The notes under the pieces are model-generated. The model was not told where the DNA came from, did not search any database, and saw only the letters and a list, made by a program, of their open reading frames with translations. The position numbers were made by a program, and so were the translations under genes. 64,000 nucleotides of DNA from Mobula hypostoma (Eukaryota): contig NC_086097.1 in NCBI RefSeq assembly GCF_963921235.1, positions 130,202,001 through 130,266,000 on the forward strand, in the 5' to 3' direction. Shown here piece by piece: positions 2,852-51,060 of this stretch (position 1 is the first letter of the stretch; every line of letters begins with the position of its first letter).

Positions 2852-3040
2852 CAAATACAGGAAAATCTGCAGATGCTGGAAATTCAAGCAACACACACAC
2901 AAAATGCTGGAGGAACTCAGCAGGGCAGGTAGCATCAATGGAAAAGAGTAGTCAACGTTTCAGCAGGGATCATGGCCTGATACATCAACTGTACGCTTTT
3001 CCATAGATGCTGCCTGGCCTTCAGCGTTGTGTGTGTTACT
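2852..3040. repeat. Older fold-back of a Penelope-like terminal repeat
   Basis: Imperfect inverted arms (GGCAGGTAGCATCAATGGAAAAG / CTTTTCCATAGATGCTGCCTGGCC) homologous to the 5119-5361 element. Centre partly deleted. Confidence 0.7.
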
Positions 3041-3870: not shown

Positions 3871-5216
3871 TCCATGACCTACAATGAAGAAAACTGCTCA
3901 CTGTATATAATCACAGAACACAGGCAGAAGCTGAAGGGGCAGAAGAATCAAAGAAACAGGGAGAGTAGGGAGTGGTGGGAAGAAAGACATTGCATCAAGA
4001 GGCACCAAGTCCAAGAGCCAGGAAGTTATGCTGTAGTTTTATAAATCTGTCACATACATAATTTGGTTGCTGCATTATCGGATGGATGTGGAGGCCATAA
4101 GACAGAGGCAGAATTAGGCCATTCAGCCCATTGAATCGGATCCACCATTCCATCCTGGCTGATTTATTATCCCTCTCAACCTTATTGCCCTGCCTGCTCC
4201 TCATAACCTTTGACGCCTTAATTGATCAAGAACCGATCCACCTCCGCTTTAAATATACCCAATGACTTGGTTTGCATTGCCATCTGTGGTAACAAATTCC
4301 ATAAATTCACCATCCTCTAGCAAAAGAAATTTTCTTCATCTCTGTTCTAAATGGATGGACCTCTATTGTGAGACTGTACCCTCTAGTCATAGACTCCCCC
4401 CACTATAAAAAAAAACCCACTCCACATCCACTCTATTCAAGCTTGTCAATGTTCGATATTTTCTAAACTCCAGTGTGTATAGTCACAGAGCCATTAAATA
4501 GTCCCCATACATTAACCTTTTCATTCCTGGGATAATTCTCATATCCTCTGAACCTTCTCCAATGCCAGCATATCTTTTCTCAGATACGGGTCCAAAACTG
4601 CTCATAATACTCCAAGTATGATCTGATTAATGCCTTATAAAACCTCATCATTACATCTTTGCTTTTGTATTCTATTTCTCTCGAAATGAATGCTCAAATT
4701 GCATTTTCCTTCCTTACCACCGACTCAACTGGCAAGTGAACCTTTAGGGAATCCTGCACATGGACTACCAAGTCTCTTTGCGCCTCAGATTTTTGAATTT
4801 TTTTTCCCCAATTTAGAAAATAGTCTACACCTCTATTCCTTCTACCATGACCATACACTTCCCTACACTATATTCCATTTGCCATTTCCTTGGCCATTCT
4901 CCCAATCTATCCAAGTCCTTGTGCAGGCACCCTGCTTTCTCAATACAACTTGCCCCTCCATCCATCTTCGTATTATCTGCATACTTGGCCACAAAACCAT
5001 CAATTCCTTCATCCAAATCACTGATATATAATGAGAAAAGAAGCAATCCCAACACAGACCCCTGCAGAACACCACTGGTCACCAACAACTAAACAAAAAA
5101 GGCCCCCTTTATTCCCGCAAACAACAGGAATTCTGCAGATGCTGGAAATTCAAGCAACACACATCAAAGTTGCTGGTGAATGCAGCAGACCAGGCAGCAT
5201 CTCTAGGAAGAGGTGC

Positions 5217-5250
5217 AGTCGACGTTTCAGGCCGAGACCCTTCGTCAGGA
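5217..5250 (-). ncRNA. Minimal type I hammerhead ribozyme motif, mirror copy on the CTDP1 sense strand
   Basis: Minus strand reads TC-CTGACGA-AGG-GTCTCGG-CCT-GAAA-CGTC-GACT, identical to the plus-strand copy. Confidence 0.7.
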
Positions 5251-5265
5251 TGAGGAGACCCTTCA

Positions 5266-5299
5266 TCCTGACGAAGGGTCTCGGCCTGAAACGTCGACT
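5266..5299 (+). ncRNA. Minimal type I hammerhead ribozyme motif (Penelope-associated)
   Basis: CTGACGA (5268-5274), helix II AGG/CCT with loop GTCTCGG, GAAA (5288-5291), CGTC with predicted cleavage after 5295. Palindromic ACGT in place of helix III. Helix I is only 2 bp. Confidence 0.7.
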
Positions 5300-5977
5300 G
5301 CACCTCTTCCTAGAGATGCTGCCTGGCCTGCTGCATTCACCAGCAACTTTGATGTGTGTTGCCCCTTTATACCCGCTCTTTACCTCCTGCCAGTCAACTA
5401 ATCTTCTACCCATGCTAGTATCTTTCCTGTAATACCATGGGGCTCTTATCTTGCTAAGCAGCCTCATGTGAGGCACCTTGTCAAAGGCCTTCTGAAAATC
5501 CACTGACTCTCCTTTGCCTATCCTGCCTGTTATTTCCTCATAGAATTGCAACAGATTTGTCAGGCAAGATTTTCCCTAAAGGAAGCCATACTGACTTTGG
5601 CCTACTTTGTTATGTGCCTCCAAGTACCCCAAAACCTCATCCTTAATAATAGCTTCCCAACCACTGAAGTCAGACTAAGTGGCCTATAATTTCCTTTCTT
5701 CTGCCTCTCTTCTTAAACAGTGAGGCAACATTTGCAATTTTCTAGCCTACCTGTACGATTCCAGATTCTAAGGATTCTTGAAAGATCATTACTAATACCT
5801 CCACAATCTCTTCAGCTACCTCTTTCAGAACCCTAGTAGTGCATTTGGTCCAGGGGCCATGCTGTATCTTCAGACCTTTCAGTTTCCCAAGCACCTTCGC
5901 CTTAGTAATAGCAACAACATTCACGACTGCCCCCTAATATTCTCGATTTTCTGGCATATTACTTGCGTTGTCAATAG

Positions 5978-14845: not shown

Positions 14846-15165
14846 CCACTGGGCACCACTTGGCCCGGTTGCCAGCACAGTTCCTTCACCACTCCTGCCT
14901 GGTCCGACTTCACCCGCTTCTCCTGCGGCCGGGACCGGGGCCTTTCGCGTTCGGCGCCACCGTCCGGCTCCACCGGGAGGCAGTGGGCCAGCACCGAGCC
15001 GATCTGCACCGGACAGCCTACTTTCACGCTCCATTCCAGGAGCCGCAGCGGCACGGAGCCCGGGGCCGACACTTCCAGCGCGGCCCCGGCTGCGGGCGTC
15101 TGGACCTGGTCTCGATCTCCTTCTCGGTCCCTGTCGGACTCCCCCGCCTCCGCTAGAGTCGCCAT
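14846..15165 (-). CDS. CTDP1: Coding exon 1 of RNA polymerase II CTD phosphatase FCP1 (CTDP1)
   Basis: Translation ...APGSVPLRLLEWSVKVGCPVQIGSVLAH...EKRVKSDQAGVVKELCWQPGQVVPSG matches the recalled human CTDP1 N-terminus (PGPAPLRLLEWRVAAGAAVRIGSVLA...ERRLRSERAGVVRELCAQPGQVVAPG). Strong Kozak AAGATGG. Ends at phase-2 donor GG|GTAAG (intron starts at 14845). Lies in a CpG island. Confidence 0.93.
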
Positions 15166-16717: not shown

Positions 16718-19700
16718 CAAAGTTCAAATTAAATTTACAATCAAAGTACTAACAGTAAAAGTCACATATACAGCCCTGAGATTCAGTTTATTGTGGGTGT
16801 CACAGTAAATGCAAGAAACACAACAGAAGCAATGAAAGACCGCACCCAACAGGACGAACAAACAGCCACGTGCAAAAGGTGACAAACTGTGCAAATACAA
16901 AAAGAAAAATAATAATAATAAATATGCAATAAATATTGAGAACATGATATGAAGAGTTCTTGAAAGGGAGTCCATAGATTGTGGGAACAGTTCAGTGATG
17001 GGGCGAGTGAAGTTGAGTGAACTATCCCCTCCGGTTCAAAAGCCTGATGGTTGAGCAGTAATAACAGTTCCTGAACCTGGTGGTGTGGTTCCTGAGGCTC
17101 TTGTATCTCCTTGCTGATGGCAGCAGTGAGAGAGAGAGAAGCCTGGATGGTGGAGGTCCTTGATGACGGATGCTGTTTTCCAGTGACAGCACTCCGTGTA
17201 GACATGCTCAATAGTGGGGAGGGCTTTACCTGTGATGGACTGGGCCATATCCACTGCTTTTTTATAGGCTTTTCCATTTAAGGCATTGTTGTTTCCATAC
17301 GAGGCCATGATACAACCAGTCAATATACTCTCCACCACACATCTATGGAGGTTTCTCAAAATTCTTGATGACATGATGAATCTTAGCAAACTTCTAAGAA
17401 AGTAGAGGCGCTGCCATACTTTCTTCATAATGGCACTTACGTGCTGGGCCCAGGGCTGATCCTCTGAAATGATAACACAGAGGAATTTTAAATTGATGAC
17501 CTTTTCCACCTCTGATTCCCCGATGAGAACTGGCTCATAGACCTCCAGTTTCCTCCGCGTGAAGTCAATCATAAGACCATAAGACATAGGAGCAGAGATT
17601 AGGCCATTTGGCCCATTGAGCCTTCTCCGCCATTCAATCATGATTGATCCTTTTTTCCTCCTCCTCAACCCTACTCCCTGGTTTTCTCCCTGTAACTTTT
17701 GATGCTGTGTCCAATCAAGAACCTGTCAAGCTCTGCCTTAAATACACCCAAAGACCTGGCCCCCACAGCAGACTGTGGAAATAAATTCCACAATTCACCA
17801 CACTCTGGCTAAAGAAATTACTATGCATCTTTGTTTTAAATGAATATCCTTCTACCTTAGACTCCTCCACCATAGGAAACATCCTTTCTGCCTCTACTGT
17901 GTCTAGGCCTTTCAACATTTGAAAGGTTTCAATGAGATCTCCCCTCATCCTTCTAAATTCCAGCAAGTACAGACCTAGAGCTATCAAATATTCCTCATAT
18001 GATAACCCTTTCATTCCCGGAATCATTCTTTTGAACCTCCTCTGAACCCTCTCCAACGCTAATACATCTTTTCTTAGATGAGGAGCCCCAAACTGTTCAC
18101 AATACTCAAGGTGAGGCCTCATCAGTGCCTTATAAAGCCTCAGCATCACATCCTTGCTCTTGTATTCCAGCCCTCTTGCAATGAATGCTAACATTGCATT
18201 TGCCTTCCTCACCACCGACTCTATCCGTATGATAACCTGTAGGGTGTTTTGCACAAGGACTCCCATGTCTTTTTGCATCTCAGATTTTTGGATTTTCTCC
18301 CCATTTAGAAAATGATCTGCACATTTATTTCTTCTACCAAAGTATATGACCATGCATTTTCCAACATTGTATTTCATTTGCCACTTTCTTGCCCATTCTC
18401 CTGATCTGTCGAGCTCTTTCTGCACTCTACCTGTTTCTTCGACACTACCTGCCCCTCCACCAATCTTCATTTCATCTGCAAACTTGGCAACAAAGCCATC
18501 TATTCCATCATCTAAATCATTGATTTACAGCATAAAAAGAAGTGGTCCCAACACTGACCCCTGCTGAACAACACTAGTCACTGGCAGCCTACCAGAAAAG
18601 GATCCTTTTATTTCCACTCACTGCCTCCTACCGATCAGCCATTGTTCTAACCATGCCAGTAACTTTCCTGTAATCCCATGGGCTCTTAACTTGGTAAGCA
18701 GCCTCAAAGGTCTTCTGAAAGTCCAAATATACAACATCCACTACATCCCCTTTACCTATCCTACTTGTAATCTCCTCAAATAATTCTAACAGGTTTGCCA
18801 GGCAAGATTTTCCCTTAAGGAAACCATGCTGACTTTGTCCTATCTTGTCCTGTGTCACCCAGTACTCCATAATCTCATCCTTAACAATTGATTCCAACGT
18901 CTTCCCAGCCACTGACTTCAGGCTAACTCGTCTATAACTTCCTTTCTGCTGCCTTCCTCCTTTCTTCAAGAGTGGAGTGACGTGTGCAGTTTTCTAGTCC
19001 TTTGGCATCATGCCAGAGTCCAGTGATTTTTGAAAGATCATTGCTAATGCCTTCACAATTTCAACCACTACCTCTTTTTAGAACCCTAGGGTGCAGTTGA
19101 TCTGGTCCAGGTGACCTATATACCTTTAAGTCTTTCAGCTTTTTGAGCACCTTCTCCCTCGTAATAGTAACTGCACTCATTTCTCTTCCCTCACACCCTT
19201 CAACACCTGGCACACTGCTAGTATCTTCCACAGTGAAGACCGATGCAAAATACTCATTTAGTTCATCCACCATCTGCTTGGCCCCTGTTATTATTTCTCC
19301 GGCCTCATTTTCTTGCAGTCCTATATCCACTCTCATCTCTTTTATTTTTTTACATACTTGAAAAAGCTTTTACGATCCACTTTGATATTATTTGATAGCT
19401 TGCTCTCATATTTCATCTTTTCGCTCCTAATGATTCATTTAGTTGCTCTCTGTAGGGTTTTAAAAGCTTCCCAATCCTCTGTGTTCCCACTAATTTTTGG
19501 TTTGTTGTATGCACTCTCTTTTGCTTTTACATTAGCTCTAACTTCCCTTGTCAGCCACAGTTGTGCTTCTTTTCCATTTGAGTATTTCATTGTTTTTGGA
19601 ATAGATCTATCCTGTACCTTACTCATTTTTCACTGAAACGCACGCAATGGCTGCTCTACTATCATCTCTGCCAGCATCTTCTTCCAGTTTACTTTGGCCA

Positions 19701-20519: not shown

Positions 20520-21490
20520 ATCACCTACAACTCCATCGACCTCTCTGTCTCACCTAACACCCCATCAGCATCCACATCCGGGACATAATTCTCAGTAATT
20601 TCCACCATCTCTAATGGGATCCCACCACCAAGCGCATCCTTCCCTCCCCCCACTTTTCGCTTTCCACAGCGATTGCTCCCTACACGACTCTCTTGTCCGT
20701 GTGTCCCTCCCCACTGATCTCCCTCCTGGCACTGACCCTTGCAAGTGGAACAAGTGCCATACCTGCCCCTACACCTCCTCCCTCACTACCATTCAGGACC
20801 CCAACATGCCTTCCAGGTGAGGCGACACTTCAGCTGTAAGTTTGCTAGGGTCATCTACTGTATCCTGTTCTCCTGCTGTGACCTCCTGTATATTGGTGAG
20901 GCCTAAGATAGATTGGGAGACCACTTCCCTGAGCACTTAAGCTCCGTCTGCCAATAAAGGCGGGATCTCCCAGTGGCTAGCCATTTCAATTCTACTTCCC
21001 ATTCCCATTCCAACATGTCAGTCTGTAGCCTCCTCTACCACTACGATGAAGCCACACTCGTGTTGGAGGAGAAACACCATATATTCTCTCTGGGCAGCCT
21101 CCAACCTGATGGCATGAACATCGATTTCTCGAACTTCCAGTACTTGCCCTCCCTTCTCCTTCATCATTCCCGATTCCCCTCTCATCTCCTTATCTCCTTA
21201 CCTGCCCATCACCTCCCTCTGGTGCTCTTCCGCCTTCCCTTTCTTTCATGGCCTTCGATCCACTCCCATCAGATACCTCCTTCTCCAGCCCTTTCTCTAT
21301 TTCACAAATCTATTTCCCAGCTCTCTGATTCACGCCTCCCCATCTCCTGGTTTCACCTGTCACCTACTACCTTCTACGTATTCCTCCCCAGCCCCACCTT
21401 CTTAGCGTGACTTTTGATCACTTTATTTCCTTCCTGATCTCGGCCCAAAACAGCGACCATCTACTCTTTTCCATAGATGCTGCCTGGCCT
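20520..21490 (+). mobile_element. Penelope-like element, GIY-YIG endonuclease region plus 3' terminal repeat (decayed)
   Basis: PCKWNKCHTCP and VIYCILFSCCDLLYIGE (from 20850) motifs, pyrimidine-rich 3' region, and a terminal repeat with a deleted hammerhead core at ~21433-21455. Confidence 0.85.
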
Positions 21491-24400
21491 AAACATAGAA
21501 ACATAAAAAACCTACAGCATAATTCAGGTCCTTCGGCCCACTAAGCTGTGCCGAACATGTCCTTACCTTAGAAATTACCTCGGCTTACCCATAACCCCCT
21601 ATTTTTCTAAGCTCCATGTACGTATCCATCAGTCTCTTAAAAGACTCTATCATTTCTGCCTCCACCACTGCCGCCAGCAGCCTATTCTATGCACTCACCA
21701 CTATCTGTGTAAGACACTTACCCCTGACATCTCCTCTGTACCTACTTCCAAGCACCTTAAAACTAAGCCCTCTTGTGCTAGCCATTTCAGCCCTGGGAAA
21801 AAGCCTCTGACTATCCAGAAGATCAATGCCTCTCATCATCTTGTGCACCTCTATCAAGTTACCTCTCAGCCTCCGTCTCTCCAAGGAGAAAAGGCCAAGT
21901 TCACTCAACCTATTCTCATAAGGCATGGTCCCCAATCCAGGCAACATCCTTGTAAATCTCCTCTGCACCCTTTCTATGGTTTCCACGCCCTTCCTGTAAT
22001 GAGGCGACCAGAACTGAGCACAGTACTTCAAGTGAGGTCTGACCAGGGTCCTATATAGCTGCAACATCACCTCCCGGCACTTAAACTCAATCCCACAATT
22101 GATGAAGGCCAACGCACCATATGCCTTCTTAACCACAGAGTCAACCTGCGTAGCAGCTTTGAGTGCCTTATGGACTCAGACCCCAAGATCCCTCTGATCC
22201 TCCACACTGCCAAGAGTCTTACCATTAATACTATATTCCACCATCATGTTTGATCTACCAAAATGAACCACCTGACACTTATCTGGGTTGAACTCCATCT
22301 GCCACCTCGCAGCCCAGTTTTGCATCCTGTCAATGTCCTGCTGTAACCTCTGATAGCCCTCCACACTATCCACAACTACCCCAACCTTTGTGTCATCAGC
22401 AAATTTACTAACCCATCCCTCCACTTCCTCATCCAGGTCATTTATAAAAATCACGAAGAGTAGGGGTCCCAGAACAGATCCCTGAGGCACACCATTAGTC
22501 ACCGACCTCCAAGCAGAATATGACCCATCTACAACCACTCTTTGCCTTCTGTGGGCAAGCCAGTTCTGGATCCACAAAGCAATGACCCCCTTGGATCACA
22601 TGCCTCCTTACTTTCTCAATAAGCCTTACATGGGGTACCTTATCAAATGCCTTGCTGAAATCCATATACACTGCATCTATGGCTCTACCTTCATCAATGT
22701 GTTTAGTCACATACTCAAAAAATTCAATCAAGCTCGTAAGGGACGACCTGCCTTTCACAAAACCATGCTGACTATTCCTAATCATATTATGCCTCTCCAA
22801 ATGTTCATAAATCCTGCCTCTCAGGATCGTCTCCATCAACTTACCAACCACTGAAGTAAGACTCACTGGTCTATAATTTCCTGGGCTATCTCTACTCTCT
22901 TTTTTGAATAAGGGAACAACATCCACAACACTTCAATCCTCTGGAACCTCTCCCGTCCTCATTGATGATGCAAAGATCATCGGCAGAGGCTCAGCAATCT
23001 CCTCCCTTGCTTCCCACAGTAGACTGGGGTACATCCCGTCCAGTCCCAGTGACTTATCCAACTTGATGCTTTCCAAAAGCTCTAGAACATCCTCTTCGTT
23101 AATATCTACATGTTCAAGCTTTTCAGTCCACTACAAGTCATCCCTACAATCACCAAGATTTTTTTCCGTATTGAGTACTAAAGCAAAGTATTCATTAAGT
23201 ACTTCTGCTATCTCCTCCGGTTCAATACACACTTTTCTATTGTTACACTTGATTCGTTCTATTCTCTTAAGTTTTATCCTCTTGCTCTTCACATTCTTGT
23301 AGAATGCCTTGGGGTTTTCTTTAATCCTGTCTGCCAAGGCCTTTTCATGGCCCCTTCTGGCTCTACTAATTTCATTCTTAAACTCCTTCCTGGTAGCCTT
23401 ATAATTTTCTAGATTTCTATTATTACCTAGTTTTCTGAACCTTTTGTAAGCTTTTCTTTTCTTCTTGGCTAGATTTACAACAGCCTTTGTACACCATGGT
23501 TCCTGTACCCTACCAGCCTTTCCCTGTCACATTGGAACGTACCTATGCAGAACCTCACGCAAATATCCCCTGAACGTTTTCCACATTTCTTCCGTACATT
23601 TCCCTGAGAAAATCTGTTTCCAATTTATGCTTCCAAGTTCCTGCTTGAGAGTCTCATCGTTCCCCTTACTCCAATTAAATGTTTCCGTGACTTCTCTATT
23701 CCTATCCCTCTCCAATGCTATGGTAAAGGAGATAGTGTTGTGATCACTGTCTCTAAAATTCTCTCCTACTGAGAGATCTGACACCTGACCAGGTTCATTT
23801 CCCAACACTAGATCAAGTACAGCCTCTCCTCTTGCAGAATTATCTACATACTGTGTCAAGAAACCTTCCTGAACACACCTCGTAAACTCTACCCCATCTA
23901 AACCCCTCACTCTAAGGAGATGCAAATTAATATTTGGGAAATTAAAATCTCCCACCACAACAACCCTGTTGTTATTACTCCTTTCCAGAATCTGTCTCCT
24001 ATCTGCTCCCCGATGTCCCTGTTACTATTGGGTGGTCTATAAAAATCATCCAGTGGTGTTATTGACCCCTTCCTATTCCTCACTTCCACCCACAGAGATT
24101 GCGTAACAACCACTCCATGACTTCCTCCTTTTCTGCAGCCATGACACTATCTCTGATCAACAGTGCCACATCCTCATCTCTTTTGCCTCCCTCCCTGTCC
24201 TTTCTGAAACATCTAAAGCCTGGCATTTGAAGTAGCCATTCCTGCCCCTGCACCATCCAAGTCTCTGTAATGGCCACAACATCATAGCTCCAAGTACTGA
24301 TCCATGCTCCAAGCTCATCCGCTTTGTTCATAATACTCCTTGCATTAAAATAGACACATCTCAAGCCATTGGTCTGAGCATGTCCCTTCTCTATCACCTG

Positions 24401-24834: not shown

Positions 24835-26640
24835 TAAGGTTCAAGTATGTGAAGAACAAGAGGGTAAGATATGAGAGAATCGGACCAATCAAATGTGACA
24901 GTGGAAAAGTGTATATGGAACCGGAGGAGATAGCAGAGGTACTTAATGAGTACCTTGCTTCAGTATTCACTATGGAAAAGGCAATTCTAGGGATGACTTA
25001 CAGTGGACTGAAAAGCTTGAGCATGTGGATATTAAGAAAGAGGATGTGCAGGAGCTTTTGGAAAGCATCAAGTTGGATAAGTCACCAGAACCGGATGGGA
25101 TATACCCCAGGCTACTGTGGGATGCAAGGGAGGAGATTGCTGAGCCTCTGGCGATGATCTTTGCATCATCAGTGAGGACGGGAGAGGTTCCGGAGGACTG
25201 GAGGGTTGCGGAAGTTGTTCCATTATTCAAGAAAGGGACTAGAGATAGCCCAGGAAATTATAGACCAGTGTGTCTTACTTCAGTGGTTGGTAAGTTGATG
25301 GAGAAGATCCTGAGAGGCAGGAATTATGAACATTTGGAGAGGCATAATATGATTAGGAATAATCAGCATGGCTTTGTGAAAGGCGGGTTGTGCCTTACGA
25401 GCCTGATTGAATTTTTTGAGGATGTGACTAAACACATTGATGAAGGTAGAGCAGTAGATGTAGTGTATATCAATTTCAGCAAGGCATTTGACACGTGTCC
25501 CCCATGCAAGGCTTATTGAGAAAGTAAGGAGGCATGTGATCCAAGGGGACATTGCTTTGTGGATCCAGAACTGGCTTACCCACAGAAGGCAAAGAGTGGT
25601 TGTAGATGGGCCATTTTCTGCATGGAGGTCGATGACCAGTGGTGTGCCTCAGGGATCTGTTCTGGGACCCCTACTCTTCGTGATTTTTATAAATGACCTG
25701 GATGAGGAAGTGGAGGGATGGGTTAGTAAATTTGCTGATGACACAAAGGTTGGGGTAGTTGTGGATAGTGTGGATAGTGTGGAGGGCTGTCAGAGGTTTC
25801 AACAGGACATTGATAGGATGCAAAACTAGGCTGAGAAGTGTAGATGGAAATCAACCCAGGTAAGTCTAAGGTGGTTCATTTTGGTAGGTCAAATATGATG
25901 GCAGAATATAGTATTAATGGTAAGACTCTTGGCAGAGTGGAGAATCAGAGGGATCTTGAGGTCCGAGTCCATAAGGCACTCAAAGCTGCCGCGCAGGTTG
26001 ACTCTGTGGTTAAGAAGGCATGTGGTACATTGGCCTTCATCAATTGTGGGACTGTGTTTAGGAGCCGGGAGGTAATGTTGCAGATATATAGGACCATAGC
26101 CAGACCCCACTTGGAGTACTGTGCTCAGTTCTGGTCTTCTCACTATAGGAAGGATGTGGAAACTATAGAAAGGGTGCAGAGGAGATTTACAAGATTTGGG
26201 GAGCATGCCTTATGAGAATAGGTTGTGTGAACTTGGCCTTTTGTCCTTGGAGTGTAGAAGGATGAGAGGTGACCTGACAGAGGTGTATAAGATGATGAGA
26301 GGCATTGATCGTGTGGATAGTCAGAGGCTTTTTCCCAGGGCTGAAATGGCTAGCACCAGAGAGCACAGTTTTAAGGTGCTTGGAAGTAGGTACAGAGGAT
26401 ATGTCAGGGGTAGGTTTTTTAAGCAGAGAATGGTGAATACGTGGAATGGGCTGCCGGCGATGGTGGTGGAGACGGATACGATAGGGTCTTTTAAGAGACT
26501 CCTGGACAGGTACATGGAGCTCAGAAAAATAGAGGGCTATGGGTAACCCTAGATAATCTCTAAGGTAAGGGCATTTTTAGACAGCTTTGTGGGTTGAAGG
26601 GCCTGTATTGTGCTGTAGGTTTTCTGTTTCTATCTTTCTA
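24835..26640 (+). mobile_element. CR1-type LINE RT pseudogene, same subfamily as 21491-24545 in opposite orientation
   Basis: ORFs 25025-25519, 25488-25829, 25844-26215 and 26196-26546 are nearly co-linear with the neighbouring minus copy. (TTTCTA) tail. Confidence 0.92.
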
Positions 26641-31189: not shown

Positions 31190-33926
31190 CGCACTTAATG
31201 TTAGCCAACTGCAGGCCAGTGACTGAAGTTTGGTTAGCCTGGACCTCTGGGTTAGTAATTTGGTCGGCTGCCATGCCGACACAGCCAACCCCTATGAGTA
31301 CAGCCTCAATGACTGGCCATTAGAAGCAATTAATCACAACATTATTTTTCCCCTTGAAATGTTGTATACCAGTTGTGAACTCTGATATGTAGGCCAGTTG
31401 GTGTTGCTGCCATGCAGACCAACGGTCTGATATTTTGGCCATCAGGAGCACAAGGGGTTTGTGGTCAATGAACACTGTGAAATGGCGACCCTGTAGTAGA
31501 AAATGAAGATGGTGGACAGCCAGATAGAGACCAAGAAACTCACAGTCAAATGTACTGTACTTTCTTTTGGGGGGGTGGGGGTGGGAACAGAGCTGCTGGC
31601 TGAAGAAGGTGAGCGGCTACCACACGCCTCGGCCAAATGTTTGCGCGCAGCATCCACAGCTTAGTCTGAAGCGTTAATAGTAATGGCAATAGGTGTTTTG
31701 AGGGGCGGGTGTGCCAATAGGGTCGCATTGGAAAGAGCTTGTTTAGTATCATCAAATACCCTGGTCCTGTCCACTGACCAGTCAAGTACGTGATTAGGGG
31801 TGTTGCCTTTAAGTGCACTATACAGGAGAAGCAGGTTCAGCAGCTCGCGGAGTGAAGCAGTGATAGAAATTCATCACACCGCAAAACTCCTGTAGTTTTT
31901 CAGTAGTGCAGGGTGGTGGGAAATCCATAATAGCGGCTACCTTTGATAGGAGGTGGTTTTACACCTTCTGCGGAGATACGATGGCCAATAAAGTCAATGG
32001 TTGACAACCCAAACTGGCATTTAGTAGGATTAATAACCAATCCATGTTGGTTTAGGAGCTTGGAAAGTGCATGGAGATGAGATATGTGTTCGGATTTGGA
32101 TGCATTGACATCCAGGTTAAAAAAAAGAGTCCATCAGCCATTGGAAAGTCTGTGTTGCATTTTTCAGCGCAAGTGGCATGCACAGAAACTCAAAAGAGGC
32201 CAAACTAGGTTATCACAGTCATTTAGGGATGAACCTTGGAAAAATTAATTTTCCAGCTAAATGTGCCAAAAAGTTTTGGATATATAAGACTGGGTAATAA
32301 TTAGGGGAGTTGATCTCATTAAGGCATCAGTAATCACCACATTGGCAACAACCACCAATGGACAGGGACTATATGGAGGGGTAAAGCCCAGGGGCTATTC
32401 AACTAGCATACAATGCAAAGTCTTTCCATGTTGGCAAACTCAGCCTTCATGATTGCCAGCTTTTCTGGGCCCAGTCTACATGCATGGGCATGGACTAGGT
32501 GCCCAGTTGTAGAAACGTGGTGCATGACCCCATATTTTGTGACTGTCATCGTGGAGATTGTGGGTTTGGTGAGGATTGGGAATTTGCCCAGCCGTTGAGT
32601 AAACTCACATGCGGTGGTGCATGCATTTGCCAGAGTCGTTGTGGAGAACTTACTGGGGGAGCAGGGTAAAGACCCAAAGTCCTTGACATTCACAAGCCAA
32701 CAGTCCTTAAGATCAATTAATAATCGTTGGGCACACAGGAAATCTACACCAAGCCAAGGTCTAGCCACTTTAGCCAGGATGAAGTTCCATGAGTAATGTC
32801 ACCCACTGAAACAGTGCGTCACCCGTTATATCTCTTAAATTTGGATCCTGCTGCCGTTAGCCGCCTCTAGCAAGGTTTCATCGCTCTTTGCCTTCACATC
32901 AATAGGAGATGCTGGCAGTACACTCACTTCTGCACTCTTGCACACAGAAAGCATGGCCTTGAAAGGGTGTCCATAATGAACAGTAGATGACCCTGGCAGC
33001 TGGAACTCACAGTGTTCTCAGACCTCAGATGTCCTGATGTGCTCACACTGTCAAAGCTCCAAGGTGGTCGGCACTTGCTAGCATTCATACCAAAGCGAGT
33101 GTGGTAAAATCACAGGCCAGGCATCATCTGTTTCATAGCCATGGGCGTCTTTATGTTGGGGGCCTTGCTGACCAGGCCTATTAAGGCAGGGAAAGGAGGA
33201 GGATTGATGCAGCACTGCCTGGCTGAGTATAGACTATCAGCCATTTTAGCAAGCTCCCTATAGTCCATCACAGGTGCATTAGTGAGGGCAGTGTGAACAT
33301 TAGCAGACACTTGGTGCATGAAGAGTTCTTTAAAAATAAAACAAGGTCAGTGATTTCCCAGGGGAGACAGCATGTGGTCCATTAGCTCTGACGGTTTAGC
33401 ATTGCTGAGGCCAGACAAGTGGAGCAACTGTTTGATGTGCTAAGACTCTGATAATCCAAAGTCTGTAAAAGGTGAGTATTCTGTGATCAGTATTTATCAT
33501 GTTCAGGCAGCTGTTCTAGTAGACTCACTACTCTCACAGCTGTGGAGTTGCCAAGTGATGCGACCACATAGTAGAACTTGGTGTTGTCAGCGGTGATTTC
33601 TCACGGCACGAATTGGGCCTTGGTATAAACCACCCAAAACACCAGAGTTTCAAAGTGACTGTGTTAGCCAACACATTCAATAACTCTGGAATCATCCTAA
33701 AGCTTCAGTGTCACCAATGCAGGTTTTTGCAAATAAAACTGTGTGAGGCATTTTATTTATAAGAAAAACCATAACAAATAATTTATTGTACTCCAAATAC
33801 TGAACACAAAGCATGGTAAAAGTACTTTACATAATTACGTCATCACACCAGACCAGTCTCTTAAACCACAACTCAATTTCGGTGGTTGTGAATTATGTGC
33901 ATTTCCACCAATTACATTAACCTACA
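31190..33926 (-). mobile_element. Decayed Gypsy LTR retrotransposon (5' LTR 33718-33926, gag, protease, RT, RNase H; 3' part missing)
   Basis: LTR TGTAGG...TGCA followed by PBS-like TTGGTGAC. gag EITADNTKFYYVVASL, protease PWLGVDFL, RNase H KYSTFDCEFLGLYLAV...FIDHKPL. Confidence 0.8.
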
Positions 33927-35046: not shown

Positions 35047-37077
35047 AGTTATGTTTTGTAACTCCAGAGACTAATTGAAAGAAAAACATGTAGCCAGGAG
35101 ATGTGTGTCTATTTTGTTTTACTTTAGTGAGACACTCACATATGACGTGGTGGCGTATTGATGTATGCCAATCACATACTTAGCACACATAACCTGTTAT
35201 GAGTTAAGTATGGCGCGTGGCCAAGTGGTTAAGGTCTAGTGATCTGAAGGTCGCTAGTTCAAGCCTTGGCTGAGGCAGCGTGTTGTGTCCTTGAGCAAGG
35301 TACTTAACCATACATTGCTCTGTGACAACACTGGTGCCAAGCTGTATGGGTTCTAATGCCCTTCCCTTGGACAACATCGGTGGCATGGAGAGGGGAAACT
35401 TGCAGCATCGGCAACTGCCGGTCTTCCATACAACCTTGGCCAGGCCTGTGCCCTGGAAACCTTCCAAGGTGCAAATCATGGTCTCACGAGACTAACGGAT
35501 GCCTATAAAAAGGAGTTAAGTAAACAAACAATATATTGACAATATTACTGAAATATTAAATACACTACACTCCTCCCTGCTTAGCTATAAATTCTAATTG
35601 AAATTAAATATATTTGACAGATGGGACTTGTGGTTGTGAGACAATCTCAGATTCTGAGGCCTCCTCTGTGGTGGCTGTAGGAGTTGACTCGGGGTTTGCA
35701 GGAAGCTCTGGCCACATTTCTTCTTTACCAATTGACTCTGCTCTCCTCCTCTGATCGATATGTTGTCTCCAGATGACACCAGATGCAATCTCCACTGTGT
35801 AGAAGAGTGGACCAGTTCTGTCCTTAATCTTTCCAAGTACCTGCTTTTGATCACCTCTGTAATCCTTCACCAGAACTATTTGCTCAGGAGTAAAATATCG
35901 AGCCTCCTTGTTTGAACAGCCCTCAGTTTGTCTTAGCTATTTGTCCTGCGTACTCCTTCTGAGACTGGGTTTGAGGAGATCCAAGTGTGAACGCCAGGGA
36001 CAACCAGGGAACAGCACAGCAGGTGGGTTGTTGGTTACGGTGTGTGCTGCATTGCGATATGCAAGGAAGAGGTTGTCTAGCTTCTGATTCAACATCAGTG
36101 TAGTGTGTTCTGCTGACATTGCTCGCAGTGCGTTCTTTAGACTTTGGACAAAACTTTCCACCAAGCCATTTGCAGCTGGGTGGTAAGTGGAGATATGATC
36201 TGCCTTATTCAGGAATGTCATTTTCAGGAATGACTGAAACTGTTCCACAAAAAACTGTGGTCCATTGTCACTGATTAACTGTTCTGCATCACCAGCCCCC
36301 TTCCTTTTGATTCCACTTATGAAACCTCAAGTGTTCTGCAATCAATAATAGGTTTGATTCTAAATGTTCCTGCATTAAGTTCACAATATCAGGAAAGCCC
36401 ATTTCAGTTAGTCTGGTTGGAGCAGTAAAACCTCTCATCAAACTGTACTGCTTTTCCAGCAATTGCACTCATTAACACTGACACTGGCTTTTCATTGGCT
36501 ATTTCATTTGCTTCAAAATAGTGCTTAATTCATTCAGTATACATCACCCAGTTATCTGTCATGCAACCGAATGTGTCTAAATTTCAGATGTAGCTAGCTA
36601 TTTCTGATTTTTTAGTTATGATTATTATCACCTGGTACTCACTGCTTATGAACCCGTAATCTTTGTCCGTTTTCTGCCTTTTTTTAACTTAACAGTCCCT
36701 GTCCCCTTCTGAAAAAACACATGCTGCGCTTTTTTTAAAACTTGAACCTCTCTCTCCCCCTTTGAAGGAAAAAAATGTGCTGTGCTTCAACAACTAATTA
36801 ATTGTCCCAGGTACTTTTTAAAACTAACTCATCACCACCGTTAAGTTTTGTAACTCCAGAAACTAATCAAAAGAAAAACACAGAAGCTGGGAGATACGTA
36901 TCTACTTTGCTTTACTTTAGTGAAGCACTCACATATGATGTGGTGGTGTAATGACATATGCCATTCATGTGCAGTACTTCATACATGTACCGTAACCCAT
37001 AATGAATTATGTAAAAAACAAAGAATGCTTAATCAAACAATATATTAACAATATTATTCAAATATTACTGAAATATT
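35047..37077 (-). mobile_element. Internally deleted Gypsy element with two LTRs (35047-35569 and 36839-37077)
   Basis: Direct repeats GTTTTGTAACTCCAGA...AATATTACTGAAATATT. PBS-like TGGTGATGAG and PPT GCAGGGAGGAG. gag start (DNWVMYTE..YFEANEI) abuts integrase (YHPAANGLVESFVQSLK). Confidence 0.85.
35211..35512 (+). mobile_element. tRNA-derived CORE-SINE inserted in an LTR
   Basis: A box TGGCCAAGTGG, B box GTTCAAGCC, CORE-like GTGTCCTTGAGCAAGGTACTTAACC. Exact 10-bp TSD GAGTTAAGTA at 35201-35210 and 35513-35522. Confidence 0.88.
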
Positions 37078-39495: not shown

Positions 39496-41832
39496 TGGGT
39501 CCCAGCATTGCCCACTGGGAACTGAAGTTCTTTATTATGCACACATATAATAGCACATCTTCTCCTTTAAAGAAAAACCAACACAATACAATGTGCACAT
39601 AAACCTGCAATGAACAATAATCCTTTCCAGTGAAGATATCTATATGAATTTCAATTGTAATGAGCAAATGCAGTCCCTAAACCACTCATTAACTTTCAAT
39701 CATTCTCTGAGGTGGTTTAATGATCCATTTTGGTCTGCTGTATGTTTCCACATTTTGCTTGCATTTGGTGCATTAATATTTGTGACTTTCTGAGAACTCT
39801 GATCAACATGTTCATTTTTTACATCTGCTGGCCTTTTTGGTGTACTGACAGGCGATGTGTCACAGCTGTAGGTTGGAGCTTGTGGTTGCAGATCCACATG
39901 GTTCCTTCTCAGAGGTGTTCCTCACTCCATCTGGCTCTGGTAGGAAAGTGGAGCAACTTCCTCTTGCACATATCCTGTCATGGACTATGTGCCAGAGTCA
40001 TGATCTCAGATTCACAATTGTCCTCCAGGCTTCAGGATGGTAGGCATGGTCATGTCATGCTACTATTTCTGTTTTCCTTTCTTTTTCACTTTAGCCAGTT
40101 TGACCTTGTGTGCTCCTTTAGGTGTCAGCAGGTTTTTGTGCACTGGAAGGTTAGTGCATATGTGTCGACCCATCAGCATTTGGGCTGGTGAAAGGTCATT
40201 TTGCAGTGGCACACTTCTGAAAATCTTTAGACTCCTGTGGGTATCCACTCATCCATCCTGTGCCTTCTTCATGAGGACCTTCACTACCTTGACCAAACGC
40301 TTGCTAGGACATTAGATTTTGGGTGATGTGGGGTTGAAGTTTTATGTTGAAACCCCCAATCAGTGGCAAAGAACTCAAATTCACAGCTTGAAAATTGTGG
40401 ACCATTATCTGATACCAATTCACGTAGAACTCCATGCTTTGTAAACAGAGCTTTCAGGAAGGTGATGACCACTTTGCTGGATGTTTATCGCAGTGTTCTA
40501 TCCTCTGGGTAATTGGAAAAGTAGTCTGTTTTAACAAAATGACTCTTCTCATTACAATCAAACAAATCCAGTCCAACTTTCAAGTACGGTCTGTCTCCTA
40601 CAGGACGTGGTGTAAATCATTTTGCTTGCTGCTTTGGTCAGTAGGTAAAACATAATTCAAATGAAGCAGTGTTCTGGCTGATGTCTTGGTTCACTTCCCA
40701 AGCTCTATGTTTACATTTTTCCTCACCAAGTTACCCTTCGTGTATCTTTGGAAGCATTTCCTCATGTAGTGACGCTGGAATCACAAACTTGTTCCTTTTG
40801 AAGACCGTATCTTCCACTATTGACAGTTCAACTCTGCATGCCCAATAATCCCAAATACACATTGGGCTGTCATTCTTAGTTGCTGCCCATGCTTTCTGTG
40901 TTGTATCTTAGAATACTTTCATTGTTTCATCCGTCCCTGCTGCTGTCCTAATCGTCTCTGTTCTATCAAGAGGTATTGGAATGGAGGTGAAAATTATGTC
41001 AACGTAAGCCTGTATATCTGCGTTCATCTCTTGGTCACACTTTTCTTTCTTGATAACTGCATGAAACAGTGCATCAGCACCACCATATATTTTCCCAGTG
41101 TGTACGTCATCTTCATATCATATTTCTGCAACCTTATCAACATGCACTGTATCCTCATGGGACAGTCATTCAGTGGTTTGGATATAATTGAGACCAGCGA
41201 CTTATGGTCCATATCCACTTCAAAAGCTAATACATAGATGTACTGATAGAACTTCTTGCATGCCTATGTGCTGGTGAGAAACTTCTTCTCTATCTGTGCA
41301 TAACTGGCTTCCGCACTTGTTAAAGCCTTTGATGCATAGGCCAGGCCATAGGTTCCTATGTGCCATCATGCTGTTACAGTAATACTGCTACAAGGCTGTA
41401 CCGGGATGCATTAGCTGAGAACTTAGTACGTCTTTTTGGATCATAAAACTTCAACACGGGCTTTTCAGTTAAAATTCTTTTGAGCCTCTGGAAACACACA
41501 TCTTGCTTGTGAGAGCAAATACACTTATTTCACTGCTCAAGGAGTGATCTAAGTGGTACTGACACAGTAGACAGTCGAGGGATGAACTTAGCCAAATAGG
41601 TCACTATCCCTAAGAAACATTTCACCTCCTGTTTGTTTTGGGGCCTCTCCATATTTTCAATGGCTGACATTTTTCTTGGGTCACACTTCACTCCCTCTTT
41701 AGATATGACATCTCCTATGAAAGTCAGTGTCTTAACACCAAACTCACATTTCTCTTTACTTAATTTCAAATTGACATTCTGTGTCACATCAAGCACTTGT
41801 CTCAGTCATGCATCATGTTCATCTGGTTCCTC

Positions 41833-43920
41833 CAGCACCATCCACATTTCTAATGACATTTGAAATATTTCTTTCAGAGCCTCTGCTATTTCCACACTAA
41901 CTTCAGCACCATCCGCATTTCTAATGACATTTGAAATATTTCTTTCAGAGCCTCTGCCATTTCCACACTAACTTCCTTCAAGGTCCTAGGGAATATCCTG
42001 TCAGAAACTGGAGACTTATCCACTTTTATATTCCTTAAAAACGCCAGTACTTCTGCTTCTTTAATCATCATAGTTTCCATAACTACCCTACTTGTTTCCC
42101 TTACCTTACACAATTCAATATCCTTCTCCTTAGTGAATACTGAAGAAAAGAAATTGTTCAAAATTTCCCCCATCTCTTTTGGCTCCGCACATAGCCGTCC
42201 ACTCTGATTCTCTAAGGGACCAATTTTATCCCTCACTATTCTTTTGCTACTAATATAACTGTAGAAACCCTTCGGATTTATTTTCACCTTACTTGCCAAA
42301 GCAACCTCGTATCTTCTTTTAGCTTTTCTAATTTATTTCTTAAGATTCTTTTTACATTCTTTATATTCCTCGAGCACCTCATTTACTCCAAGCTGCCTAT
42401 ATTTATTGTAGATCACATCAAAGTTGATGGTGAACGCAGCAGGCCAGGCAGCATCTCTAGGAAGAGGTACAGTCGATGTTTTGGGCTGAGACCCTCTGTC
42501 AGGACTAACTGAAAGAAGAGCTAGTAAGAGATCTGAAAGTGGGAGGGGGAGGGGAAGATCCAAAGTGATAGGAGAAGGCAGGAGGGGGAGGGATGGAGCC
42601 AAGAGCTGGACAGTTGATTGGCAAAAGGGATATGAGAGGATTATGGGACAGGAGGTCTAACGAGAAAGAAAAGGCGGGGGGGGGAACCCAGAGCATGGGC
42701 AAGGGGTATATTCAGAGGGACAGAGGGAGAAAAAGGAGAGTGAGAGAGAGAATGTGTGTATAAAAATAAATAACGGATGGGGTACGAGGGGGAGGTGGGG
42801 CATTAGCGGAAGTTTGAGAAGTCAATGTTCATGCCATCCGGTTGGAGGCTACCCAACTGGAATATAAAGTGTAGTTCCTCCAACCTGAGTGTGGCTTCAT
42901 CTTGACAGTAGAGGAGGCCGTGGATAGACATATCAGAATGGGAATGGGACATGGAATTAAAATGTGTGGCCACCTGGAGATCCTGCTTTCTTTGGCGGAC
43001 AGAGTGTAGGTGTACAGTGAAACGATCTCCCAGTCTGCGTCTGGTCTCGCCAATATATAGAAGGCCACATCAGGAGCACTGGGCGCAGTATATCACCCCA
43101 GCCAACTCACAGGTGAAATGTCGCCTCACCTGGAAGGACTGTCTGGGGCCCTGAATGGTGGTGAGGGAGGAAGTGTAAGGGCATGTGTAGCACTTGTTCC
43201 GCTAACAAGGATAAGTGCCAGGAGGGAGATCAGTGGGGAGGGATGGGGAGGACGAATGGACAAGGAAGTCGCGATCCTCTTGCCCCTCTGATTCTGTCAC
43301 ACCTGAAGCAACGAAATCCAGGAATATTTAGTTGCCAATCACACCCCTCCTGCAACCATGTTTCACAAATAGCTACAACATCATATTTCCAGGTATCAAT
43401 CCATGCTCTAAGCTCATCCGCCTTTCTTACAATGCTCCTAGCATTAAAATAGATGCATTTAAGAAACTCTCCACCTCTTACTCTCTGTTCATCCCTAATG
43501 GCGCAAACAATTTCGTTATCTTTTTCTTCCTTCTCCCCTACATCTTCGGTCTGAGTGCTCCCGTTCTCTGTCCCCTGCCTATCCTCCCTCACACACTGTC
43601 TACTAGCTTTCCCTATTTGTGAACTAATCTCCTCTCTCCTAGTCTCTTCAATTTGATTCGCACCCCCCAACCATTCTAGTTTAAAGTCTCCCCACTAGCC
43701 TCCACAAATCTTCCCGCCAAGATATTGGTCCTCCTAGGATTCAAGTGCAACCCATCCTTTTTGTACAGGTCACATCTGTGCCAAAAGAGATCCCAATGAT
43801 CCAGACACTTGAATCCCTGCCCCCTGCTCCAATCCCTCAGCCATGCATTTATCCTCCACCTCATTCCATTCCTACTCTCACTGTTGGGTGGCACAGGCAG
43901 TAATCCCGAGATTACTACCT
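41833..43920 (-). mobile_element. CR1 5' half (ORF1 end, APE, linker) lacking its 3' end
   Basis: DHWDLFW..DGLHLN esterase, CIYFNARSIVRKADEL APE and EILNNFFSSVFT motifs. Confidence 0.85.
42414..43272 (-). mobile_element. Penelope-like element fragment (GIY-YIG plus terminal repeat with decayed hammerhead at 42471-42506)
   Basis: VIYCAQCS*CGLLYIGETRRRLGDRF. The terminus reads AGTC-CTGACAG-AGGGTCTCAGCCC-AAAA-CATC-GACT. Confidence 0.88.
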
Positions 43921-44479: not shown

Positions 44480-46290
44480 CAGGTCCACAATCCCTTATTC
44501 AAAATCCTTGGGGCCAGTTGCATTTCGGAACTCAGAATTTTTCGGATTTCAGAAAATTGATAATTATATTGCATGAGTACAACAATGGACACAAACAAGT
44601 CAGCCTTTACAATGAAAGCTGCTTATCAATGGGTTTTACATGGATCCAAGTTGTCTATTCCATTGTGCCTAGTCTGTGGCAAACAACTTACGAATGCAGC
44701 AATGGTGCCAGCAAAATTGAAAAGACACTTAACTATTAATCACAGTTATATCATATGTAAAATGCTGATTATTTTAAATGGCTATTGGAATATTAAAACG
44801 AGCAGAGTAAAGCTTTTGTTAATAAAGTCACAGTCAGTAAAAGGGTCCCAGGAAGCAAGTTACTTAGTAGCAGAACTTTTTACCGAGAAAAGGAAAAGTC
44901 AAATGGTTGGTGAGAACCAGCTTGTAAAATCATAGTGGGTAAAGTGCTGGGGCAAGATACAATATGAGAAATTGAAAAAATTTCACTCTCAAGCAGTGCG
45001 ATAAGTCAATGTATTGATGACATGTCACATGATGCTGAAGACATTTTGTGTGATAAACTGAAAAAAACCATAGCTTCTCGATCCAGGTTGATGAGTCAAC
45101 AGATTCAACCAATAAATGTCATTTGTAAGATTTGTAGATGATGATAAAATTTAGGAAAACTTTTTCTGGTGCAAAGAACTGCCCAAAACAAGCAAAGGCC
45201 AAGATATATTTAATGTTTTGTGTCCATATCTGGAAACAAAAGTTCTGTCTTGGAGGGACTGTGATGGCACCTGTACTGATGGTGCCCCAACAATGGTTGG
45301 TTCTATGAGAGGTTTCGTTTCTCTTGTAGTAAAAGAAATTTCTGACATTGTCGTAACATACTGCTTTCTTCACAGAGTGGTGCGGATGTCAAAAACACTT
45401 GGAGATGAAATGAAAAAAGTTCTGGATGATGCTACACAAATGGTTGACTTTATAAACAAAGACCATTTCATTCAAGAATGCTTAAAAACTGAGCATGCCA
45501 ATCTCCAGCTGCATAGAGAAATCCGGTGGCTTAGCAGAGGAAGAGTTCTCAACAGGGTGTTTGAGCTGAAAGGTGAATTGTGAAAGGTGAACCAGTGTGA
45601 GTGGACTTTAGGACCAGGGGCAGCTCTGGACCTACACACATCCTCCCGTATACTTTAAATCATCTCTAGATTACTTATAATACCTAATACAATGTAAATG
45701 CTATGTAAATAGTTGTTATATTGTATTGTTTAGGGAATACCAACAAGAAAAAAAGTCTGTACATGCTCAAACAACGAGTGCTGGAGAGAGATCTTCCGGG
45801 TTTTCCTGATCCGTGTTCTTTTACAAATACTGTTACAGTTTATTTATAGAGTAATATACTGATAAATGAAATAGTGCGGTAATTATAGACCATAAATACA
45901 GTAGCACATTTTATTTCCAACAAAAACATTCAATAAAACATACAAATATGCAGCTTCAAATGAACCAAATCAAACACATGGTAAATGACTTATTGGAATA
46001 AATGTAGAACGTAAATACTCTAGGACGTATACAGGTTCAAACTAAGCTAAGTACTTACAGGTACCTCTAGTTAACTTACATTACATCTGGCAAACAAAGC
46101 TAAATACTCTACAGGTACCTGATGGGCCAAGAACAGGATTCTGCTAGTGCTGCCACATCACACCTGAGTGATGTCAGCTGGTGGCGTGCCAAACAAGCCT
46201 TGTTACAACACGCTCCACACTCCATGAGAAAAACTTCAGTTTTTAGAGCTTTTCAGATTTCAGGATTTTAGATAAGGGATTGTGGACCTG
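44480..46290. mobile_element. TcMar-Tigger-like element (MER46C-like TIRs) with internal hAT transposase and MER2-like segments
   Basis: TIRs CAGGTCCACAATCCCTTAT / ATAAGGGATTGTGGACCTG with TA TSD at 44478-44479 and 46291-46292. Removing the element and one TA restores the Gypsy frame EKLV|QPMLGLSACEK. Confidence 0.9.
44572..45583 (+). pseudogene. Buster-family hAT transposase fragment (ZBED8/Buster3-like)
   Basis: YNESCLSMGFTW, PLCLVCGKQLTNAAMVPAKLKRHL (BED finger), IQVDESTD, CTDGAPTMVG, YCFLHR and EIRWLSRGRVLNRVFELK motifs, with frameshifts. Confidence 0.88.
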
Positions 46291-47592
46291 TACTAGCTTT
46301 TCTGCAATCAGTAGATGTACCTTTAGGTGCAGCCCCTGGTGCTTGAAGGTCACCATCCAGCCCCAATTACTGGAAAATTCTCTCCAGTATAGCCTATCAC
46401 TTTTAACTTCACTGCATAGATCTTGCTCTTTACTTTGAGAGGCTTGTAATCATTCATGGATAACAGATTCACCTGTGCTCCGGTGTACAGCTTAAAAGGA
46501 ATTACTGTCTCATTCACAGTCACTGGTACAACCCATTCTGTTTTACCAACACCAGCAGTCTGTAAGGAATCCACAAAGACTTGCGCCATTTCCTCATCAA
46601 CTATGTGCACCTTTCTTTTGGTAGCCCCAGCTTTGAAGCACTTTGCAAAATGGTTCGTCTTCCCACAATTATTGCAGGACATTCCATAAGCAGCATACAC
46701 CTTTGTAACATGACTCCCTCCACATTTGCTGTATTTACTGTTTGAGCCTTCCTTTCTGCTCTGCTGTTGCTTTGCGAAACGTCTTGTGCACTGCTCCTCT
46801 GTTTTCACAGCATGCACAGTTGTGTCTGCCCTGTGCAGCACCTTAATTCGTGCCCGTGTGGTTTCTGCTGCCCTACAAATATCCACAGCCTTTTCCAGCA
46901 TCACATCTTTTTCACACAGCAATCTTTCTCTGAGCCCATTGTCTGGGATTCCGCAAAATATTACCTCTCCAACTAACGAGTTTCTCAAATCTCCAAACTC
47001 ACAGGACCTACTCAGTGTGTATCGCTCGGCTTAAGTGTTGGTCAAAGCTATCATCATTTTTCTGGTCACATGGAAAAAACTTATATCTCTCAGACATGAT
47101 ATTTTCACTTGGGACAAAATACTCCTCAAATGTTATCATCAGAGTGTCCAATGAAAAAGGTGTCTCATCAATTTGAAAGCTGTTATAGATTCTCAAGGCA
47201 ACTTCACCAACTACTTGCAGAAAAATAGATGCTTTCAATTTTTCATCACCCCCTCCTGCTCTGCTAGTTGCTAAATATATGTTGAATCGTGTTTGAAGCA
47301 TTTCCAGTTAACAGTTAGTTTGCCAGTAAACTGCATAGATGTGGGAGGACTTCGGTTATCCATGATGGGAACTCACAGCCTCTCACCTGAATTTCTTGGT
47401 GAATTTGGTGAACTTCGGGACACAGCTGAAGCCTCTCTGAATCAGGTCTGCTTCTCTCCGTCCTAGCATCTCTTTCTCAGTTGCTCACGGTATTCATTTA
47501 CTCTGTGTTCAGACCTCATGCCATCTTCTGACACCATGTTATATTTGTTCTTCACAAGGAGAAACTTAGTGTGGGTAAACGTTAGAACCTTT

Positions 47593-50500: not shown

Positions 50501-51060
50501 TTCTCCATGGGAACCACCTTCTGCCTCTGGGACAAGAGGTGCTGGTTGACCCCGAGCCCGACCTGGAGCCTACACCTAGTAAGAGAACTCTGCAGTGACA
50601 CGGGGTGACTGCAGGACCAACAGCAGGAGAGATTAGGCCAGCCCCCGCCCCTGAGTGGGATGTTGATTCGGAGGATGAGGACATGGGAGTGTGGTATATA
50701 CTGCCTTTTGCTAACTGCCCGCTGATTGAAGAAGAGACTCCCAACCCTTCTCCCACTGAGTAGGGTGAAATTGGAGTGGGGGGTACTATCTGTGGACAGC
50801 CTGGGTTGCAGTGGGACCCTGCAAGAGATGAAACGGGGCTTAGCCAAGGGACAGAGAGGTCTGATTTGCAGGTGGGCATAAGTGATAGGCCGGGGGAGGC
50901 CTCGCCAGGTAGACCAGAATTATCCTCATTAGTGTCGGAATATGAAGAAGTAGAGGGGGAACGGAGGTCTCAAAGAATTAGGAGACCAACGGATAGACTG
51001 ACCTATGTAGCACGAGAGGAACAGAGTGTGGCCCCTACCACTGTGGGGAGCTGTTGTCAC
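47593..51060 (+). mobile_element. Gypsy LTR retrotransposon B (PNMA-like gag), inserted in the Gypsy A 5' LTR; internally deleted, 3' LTR lost
   Basis: LTR 47593-48150 (TGTAAC...GTTATA) and tRNA-Pro-like PBS TGGGGGCTCATCTGGGATT at 48155-48173. RNase H LCTDAS/EFLALKWAV, integrase HDDSGHLG..FYWP..C, IHSDQGRDFES and PERFNRTL. Confidence 0.88.

Follow-up and report, generated by a model that had tools for sequence, protein, structure and literature searches.

The window, a stretch of 64,000 nucleotides of the Mobula hypostoma genome, contains on its reverse strand the first coding exon (14846-15165) of a host gene that we take, from its protein motifs, to be CTDP1-like; a Pfam search of this exon returned no match. 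The next exon of the gene was located some 17.6 kb ahead of the first base of the window, which places the element described here in intron 1, the position that an earlier note on this DNA had given it in CTDP1. The insertion splits a decayed LINE fragment on the reverse strand (4092-5923), presumably CR1-like. The paralogue of this fragment at 17574-19179 is continuous, and two paralogous LINE copies in the window each hold the sequence resembling the target site duplication (TSD) once.

The inserted element occupies 5119-5361 (243 bp) and is flanked in the window sequence by a 15-bp TSD, a direct repeat on the forward strand (5104-5118 and 5362-5376) that matches at 14 of 15 positions and whose left copy shares its last 3 bases with the element's own continuation (microhomology). 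Its inverted arms (5154-5253 and 5263-5362) are 100 nt each and 99% complementary, with one mismatch and 9 nt between them, and the computed RNA fold (-216.8 kcal/mol, z -30.9) was equalled in stability by none of 200 shuffles. These coordinates bear out the dimensions of insertion, TSD, arms and loop in the earlier note. From left to right, the element consists of a 35-nt tail of a Penelope-like element (PLE), present on arm 1 only (5119-5153, reverse strand) and starting from RT start site 1; the tailed arm 1, a 5′-truncated pLTR copy (5154-5250, reverse strand, element sense) that ends at the hammerhead 5′ edge; a junction of 15 non-native bases (5251-5265, no strand) that is unique in the genome; and the untailed arm 2, an inverted 5′-truncated pLTR copy (5266-5361, forward strand) that starts from RT start site 2. 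The junction includes a templated re-copy of GAGACCCTTC, which is found at 5234-5243 and again at 5255-5264, as had been noticed from the loop. Both arms end 1-2 bases short of the family stop point at the hammerhead 5′ edge, the microhomology of the start sites to the target is 3 and 1 nt, and the insertion has no ORF. The insertion is likely a truncated double copy of the end of an abundant PLE, folded anew on landing in the intron. This pattern has already been described for the Penelope-like class, and as a single locus it is ordinary.

Parent element and hammerhead motifs

An open frame of 1,043 aa was present at six loci, and 5 of the 10 loci examined had a unit of ~3.5 kb flanked by pLTRs that share 95-98% identity with the query arm, which upholds the Penelope origin proposed for the arms. 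The parent protein gave weak matches to RVT_1 and GIY-YIG, below the Pfam curated cut-offs, and carries DKG, CX4CxxC and CxxC-in-GIY-YIG motifs. As expected of an EN+ PLE, the parent combines a single ORF encoding RT and C-terminal GIY-YIG (the same sub-cut-off Pfam matches) with tandem pLTRs, and the insertion combines an inverted 5′-truncated copy, a one-sided tail, a TSD and a hammerhead motif in the pLTR. The CX2-5CxxC linker, the CCHH in the endonuclease and DKG, as defined for Neptune and Nematis in the available text of PMC8557442, were all found, and are common to both clades. Judged from these motifs rather than from a tree, the parent is a Neptune-type PLE with full-length 3.5-kb copies (RT and GIY-YIG) in the genome. 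The tail 28-mer has 46,669 exact matches genome-wide and the hammerhead 14-mer has 44,998 on the forward strand, the reverse-strand count being inflated by the variable gap of the pattern. Full-length units also occur in tandem with a period of ~3.5 kb (L226, L232).

A minimal type I hammerhead motif lies in each arm of the query, at 5219-5250 on the reverse strand, which is that of the host gene (predicted cut 5221/5220), and at 5266-5297 on the forward strand (predicted cut 5295/5296). The core CTGACGA-AGGGTCTCGGCCT-GAAA that the earlier note had reported on both strands was seen at 5268-5291 (forward) and 5248-5225 (reverse), and helix II is also present, with a G-U or, in the other register, an A-U at position 10.1-11.1. 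The description of the hammerhead as intact holds for this core; it does not hold for the whole motif. Helix I is cut to 2 bp on both strands, as had been remarked, compared with the 4-5 bp of a minimal type I hammerhead and with 5 bp in 50 of the 62 family motifs matched by a descriptor of our own. A loose hammerhead pattern had 7 matches in the window against 7.47 expected, which is not above chance; the evidence for the hammerhead is the family context. An Rfam scan returned no hammerhead at E<=1. The copy of the query's PLE near 42.5 kb, with which the short helix I had been compared, is an older, single untailed arm reaching into the 3′ end of the ORF (42414-43250, reverse strand); it does have the AGTC/GACT helix I, although with a decayed core.

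Whichever strand is read, transcription passes through the antisense arm before the hammerhead core, and in computed folds of co-transcriptional prefixes ending at the cut site the unpaired probability of the core was 0.0, in agreement with the suggestion that the hairpin buries it. Because helix I is cut to 2 bp and each core follows its perfect antisense in the transcript, the query hammerheads are predicted to be inactive passengers. Silencing of the ribozyme, which had been put forward as a function, is best read as a by-product of the head-to-head geometry, and nothing suggests selection for function at the locus.

Minimal type I hammerheads of metazoan PLEs are described in the available text of PMC4209133 as cleaving weakly and depending on dimers. 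The query shares with them the CUGANGA / GAAAC-GUC core, the absence of loop III, the palindromic 15.2-16.2 and the extra base ahead of helix II, and Schistosoma is likewise known to have dual motifs, 100-700 bp from each other on opposite strands (PMC4209133). It differs from them in the 2-bp helix I, and the family here has G-U at 10.1-11.1 in place of their conserved G-C. This G-U, found in 51 of 62 motifs of a young subfamily (L137-L195), may reflect relaxed selection on cleavage. A peak of stops at the ribozyme cut site was also sought among the arm ends, and only a few arms stop there. These ends can be put down to GACT/AGTC microhomology or are scattered, and they give no ground for claiming cleavage in vivo.

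Two-armed copies across the family and their formation

Mapping of arms yielded 48 pairs from 50 short-loop loci, 11 from 15 longer-loop loci once three duplicates and one locus without a pair had been dropped, and 26 from 59 unselected loci. In 84 of the 85 pairs, one arm was tailed and the other untailed. In an independent, tail-anchored sample (n=90), which partly overlaps the mapped loci, 49 arms had an inverted partner, which was untailed in every case. TSDs were 13-15 bp long in 57 of the 69 pairs that were scored among the 85, with a mode of 14. RT starts cluster at two sites ~36 nt apart, at which the mean microhomology to the target is 1.0 and 1.9 nt, and single-arm copies start from either site. 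Arm lengths are correlated (rho 0.52) and often very unequal, the untailed arm being longer in 25 of 49 pairs and the tailed arm in 13, and in many copies with TSDs neither arm contains the other (untailed 910 versus tailed 53, 867 versus 176, and 1228 versus 270).

The two arms of a pair carry the same allele in 413 of 449 diagnostic-site comparisons (92%), versus a fraction of 0.587 in shuffles (maximum 0.669). In 54 of 76 pairs the arms agree at every diagnostic site compared, in the other 22 at least one such site is discordant, and a few pairs look like the products of two templates or sources (L191, L169). Rare non-CpG variants are shared between arms 10 times, versus 0.87 expected. At the hammerhead 5′ edge the stop hazard reaches 2.55 per 100 nt, roughly 20-fold the 0.10-0.14 beyond it. 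Among 100 short-loop arms, 40 have their ends on one of two neighbouring bases, where helix I starts and the A of an initiator-like TTAGTCC lies; end positions are upper bounds owing to microhomology, and 7-mers of the TTAGTCC type are common.

We consider it probable that the locus is a truncated Neptune-type PLE insertion, with a tailed and an untailed pLTR head to head within a 15-bp TSD, likely formed by two-ended target-primed reverse transcription. Anatomy, parent element and family statistics were observed directly, and the steps that follow are read back from the end products. The RT/GIY-YIG protein, probably as a dimer, would nick both strands about 14 bp apart, and each 3′ end would prime cDNA at one of the two fixed sites ~36 nt apart, one site per end. 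Both cDNAs would usually be copied from one RNA or one source and would stop at the hot spot at the hammerhead 5′ edge, which could be the 5′ end of the RNA or a place where the RT stalls. Host end-joining would then unite the cDNA ends through microhomology and short templated inserts, making the loop, and the product, having no ORF, is predicted to be dead on arrival. Two-ended priming, mostly on one RNA, would fit because start sites are used one per end, TSDs keep to 13-15 bp, arms are 92% concordant and stops are concentrated about 20-fold.

The in vitro behaviour of the Poseidon PLE protein of Anolis (PAc; Frangieh et al. 2024, PMC11167929) is similar in that, according to the text available from that study, both target strands are nicked and extended, two internal start sites bound the tail, ribozyme cleavage is not needed (the template RNA being uncleaved) and the protein is predicted to be a dimer. 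The same study saw start-site use without a strand difference, a point against the one-site-per-end model; strict pairing is seen in the genome here, whereas it is not reported in vitro in the portion of PMC11167929 available. The parent here also differs from Poseidon in having the CX4CxxC linker of the Neptune/Nematis type, absent in Poseidon, and in an ATG that lies beyond the tail, that of PAc lying in the hammerhead (PMC11167929, in part).

Copying of a single RNA accounts less well for some pairs. The 22 discordant pairs and the two-template appearance of L191 and L169 count against it, and the pairs with a longer tailed arm are not predicted by a strict form in which a trailing RT follows on one RNA without trimming. 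Arm concordance and length correlation are moreover equally expected from fold-back copying or from later arm-to-arm conversion. In fold-back copying, the second arm would be a DNA copy of the first, made when cDNA or antisense RNA self-primes and folds back, and trimming of the hairpin tip would diversify the loops; self-priming and antisense RNA were proposed by Arkhipova et al. 2013 (PMC3846280, in its available text). The high concordance, the excess of shared rare variants, the correlated lengths and two CpG decays of the query that appear symmetric are all in its favour. However, an untailed arm can exceed its tailed partner by hundreds of bases, the starts of untailed arms concentrate at a site that single-arm insertions also use, and some discordant haplotypes lie beneath perfect TSDs (L191), and we regard fold-back copying as unlikely.

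A splice acceptor, with a pyrimidine tract and AG at the same bases, is a possible origin of the stop hot spot, and helix I is also where an intron ends in the Penelope of Drosophila virilis (PMC4209133, in part). Single-arm copies that stop there join the TSD directly (3 of 15 checked), with no sign of an upstream exon. The stretch immediately 5′ of the hammerhead (1930-1966 in L227, and in the family) contains a branch-point-like CTCAC, a pyrimidine tract, two AGs and overlapping initiator-like motifs.

A more specific form of two-ended priming is offered tentatively, as somewhat short of an even chance. A PLE dimer would nick the strands 14 bp apart and copy one RNA twice, once from each start site, and most copies would run off a transcript that starts exactly where hammerhead helix I begins, in the initiator-like TTAGTCC. 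Short hairpins would then be 'strong-stop' products of the 5′ pLTR, and by extrapolation some 20,000 or more inverted pairs might impose a dsRNA load like that of inverted Alus.

Junctions and age of the fold-backs

The earlier note had taken the insertion for a strand-symmetric, non-coding Penelope derivative that might be mobile as a unit, and had asked for a genome-wide search for its junction. The exact junction of the query proved to be single-copy in 3.48 Gb, and a looser pattern found one sister junction. Exact fold-back cores with other junctions number at least 2,502 (1,614 with a gap of 0-30 and 888 with a gap of 31-60). A related junction was present at 43 loci, in a CG form at 34 and in a CA form at 9; 30 of these loci were examined, of which four had no scored arm and two no clear tail, and in the 24 that could be oriented the tail lay on either side in equal numbers (12:12). 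More than ten haplotype strings accompany this junction. Because it occurs on many haplotypes and with the tail on either side, the fold-back junctions appear to be made anew. An apparent excess of a CATCC junction among the best BLAST matches was set aside as query bias, the genome-wide figures being 34 CG versus 9 CA.

A palindromic, non-autonomous element of MITE or SINE type, moving as a unit and regulating its ribozyme through the hairpin, might be suspected from the number of short fold-backs, their similar lengths and the recurrence of some junctions (43 loci). It is nevertheless largely refuted and, in our judgement, very improbable. The query junction is single-copy; the recurrent one shows both tail orientations and many haplotypes, whereas copying from a palindromic master should keep the tail on a constant side of the loop; and the range of arm lengths is continuous up to full length. 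A MITE- or SINE-like element should recur at many loci with junction, orientation and haplotype unchanged, a combination that was not found. The alternative that had been tied to a single-copy junction, a one-off accident, fails as well, fold-back being routine for this PLE family, as the partnered tailed arms (49 of 90) indicate. A chimeric fold-back read giving rise to an assembly artefact is scarcely credible: none of the short-read contigs, among which repeat copies dominate, spanned the loop, but the TSD has the family-typical length and lies inside a split LINE, the tail is asymmetric, thousands of similar loci have individual TSDs, and one contig (run X5) is exact over 5057-5137 across the left junction, with just 19 nt within the element, below the 31-nt bar.

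A census of 65 junctions contained 35 with inserts, many of them visibly templated, 12 with 2-3 nt of microhomology and 18 with 0-1 nt; microhomology of at least 2 nt in 12 of 65 is near the 16% expected for blunt joins, a point against the proposed formation. Several nested templated inserts were seen at three junctions (L139, L182, L099), which to us resemble the products of iterative repair by polymerase theta.

The insertion is fairly young and not exceptional, with one arm mismatch, 8 of 10 family CpG sites intact and one TSD mismatch; 25 of the 69 scored pairs have 0-1 arm mismatches. The recent age claimed from undecayed CpGs is sustained in outline, although the CpGs are not all intact, the AACGC site being decayed in both arms. 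Across the family, CpG decays are shared between arms 8 times versus 2.2 expected. Judging from related junctions, the query junction has probably lost two further CpGs symmetrically since insertion. Because of this probable symmetric loss and the decay of the AACGC site in both arms, arm identity may overstate youth via arm-to-arm conversion.

Comparison with known systems and other repeats of the window

PLE insertions that combine an inverted, truncated copy with a tail of 30-40 bp at one end are already known (available text of PMC8557442, PMC3846280 and PMC2377424). The locus resembles the canonical complex insertions of EN+ PLEs (PMC8557442, Fig. 2 legend; PMC3846280; both in part) in the head-to-head inverted 5′-truncated copy, the tail at one end, the TSD and the hammerhead in the pLTR. 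It differs from them in that both arms are pLTR-only, the ORF is absent and the hairpin is a near-perfect 100 bp, and the family differs in its 13-15-bp TSDs, compared with 8-10 bp in the rotifer examples of the same two sources. Thousands of copies here also permit statistics. Animal non-LTR retrozymes, as described in the available part of bioRxiv 10.64898/2026.07.22.740005, are likewise non-coding, hammerhead-bearing and PLE-derived; they are direct tandem repeats, whereas the query consists of two copies inverted head to head and flanked by a TSD, and no direct tandem units with a hammerhead in each were seen in it. In L1 twin priming, both target nicks prime cDNA and the resulting inversion is joined by microhomology; two different parts of the RNA are copied there, whereas both arms here copy the same part.

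The family statistics add two fixed starts used one per end, 13-15-bp TSDs, 92% concordance and the stop hot spot. No prior description of one-site-per-end pairing, arm concordance or the hot spot was found in the literature searched, which lay mostly outside subscription journals and supplements, and the available part of a ray-genome preprint (10.64898/2026.10.27.761883) does not mention Penelope. Reviews treat the origin of inverted pLTRs and tails in PLEs as still open. Here thousands of young insertions can be studied beside intact parents, which would allow genome-wide counts of one-site-per-end priming, of one versus two templates and of the stop at the hammerhead edge, as well as tests with a natural full-length ORF. 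The many near-perfect hairpins in introns may in addition be a considerable source of endogenous dsRNA.

Other repeats were observed in the window. A related PLE subfamily, about 80% identical to the query, is represented at 2857-3028 by an older fold-back in the order tailed arm, junction, untailed arm, its hammerhead deleted at the join, and decayed pLTR fragments of related subfamilies lie at 21438-21490, 56260-56301 and 58000-58090. A large inverted LINE pair (21491-23299 and 24842-26637), 88% identical over 1.8 kb, adjoins a PLE fragment. Decayed stretches at 46353-47307, 49303-50595, 31323-32798, 35607-36326 and 41533-41805 are presumably related to genes of Gypsy-type LTR retrotransposons, and fragments at 44564-45580 and 62691-63050 are taken to resemble hAT-type and Harbinger-type transposase genes, respectively.
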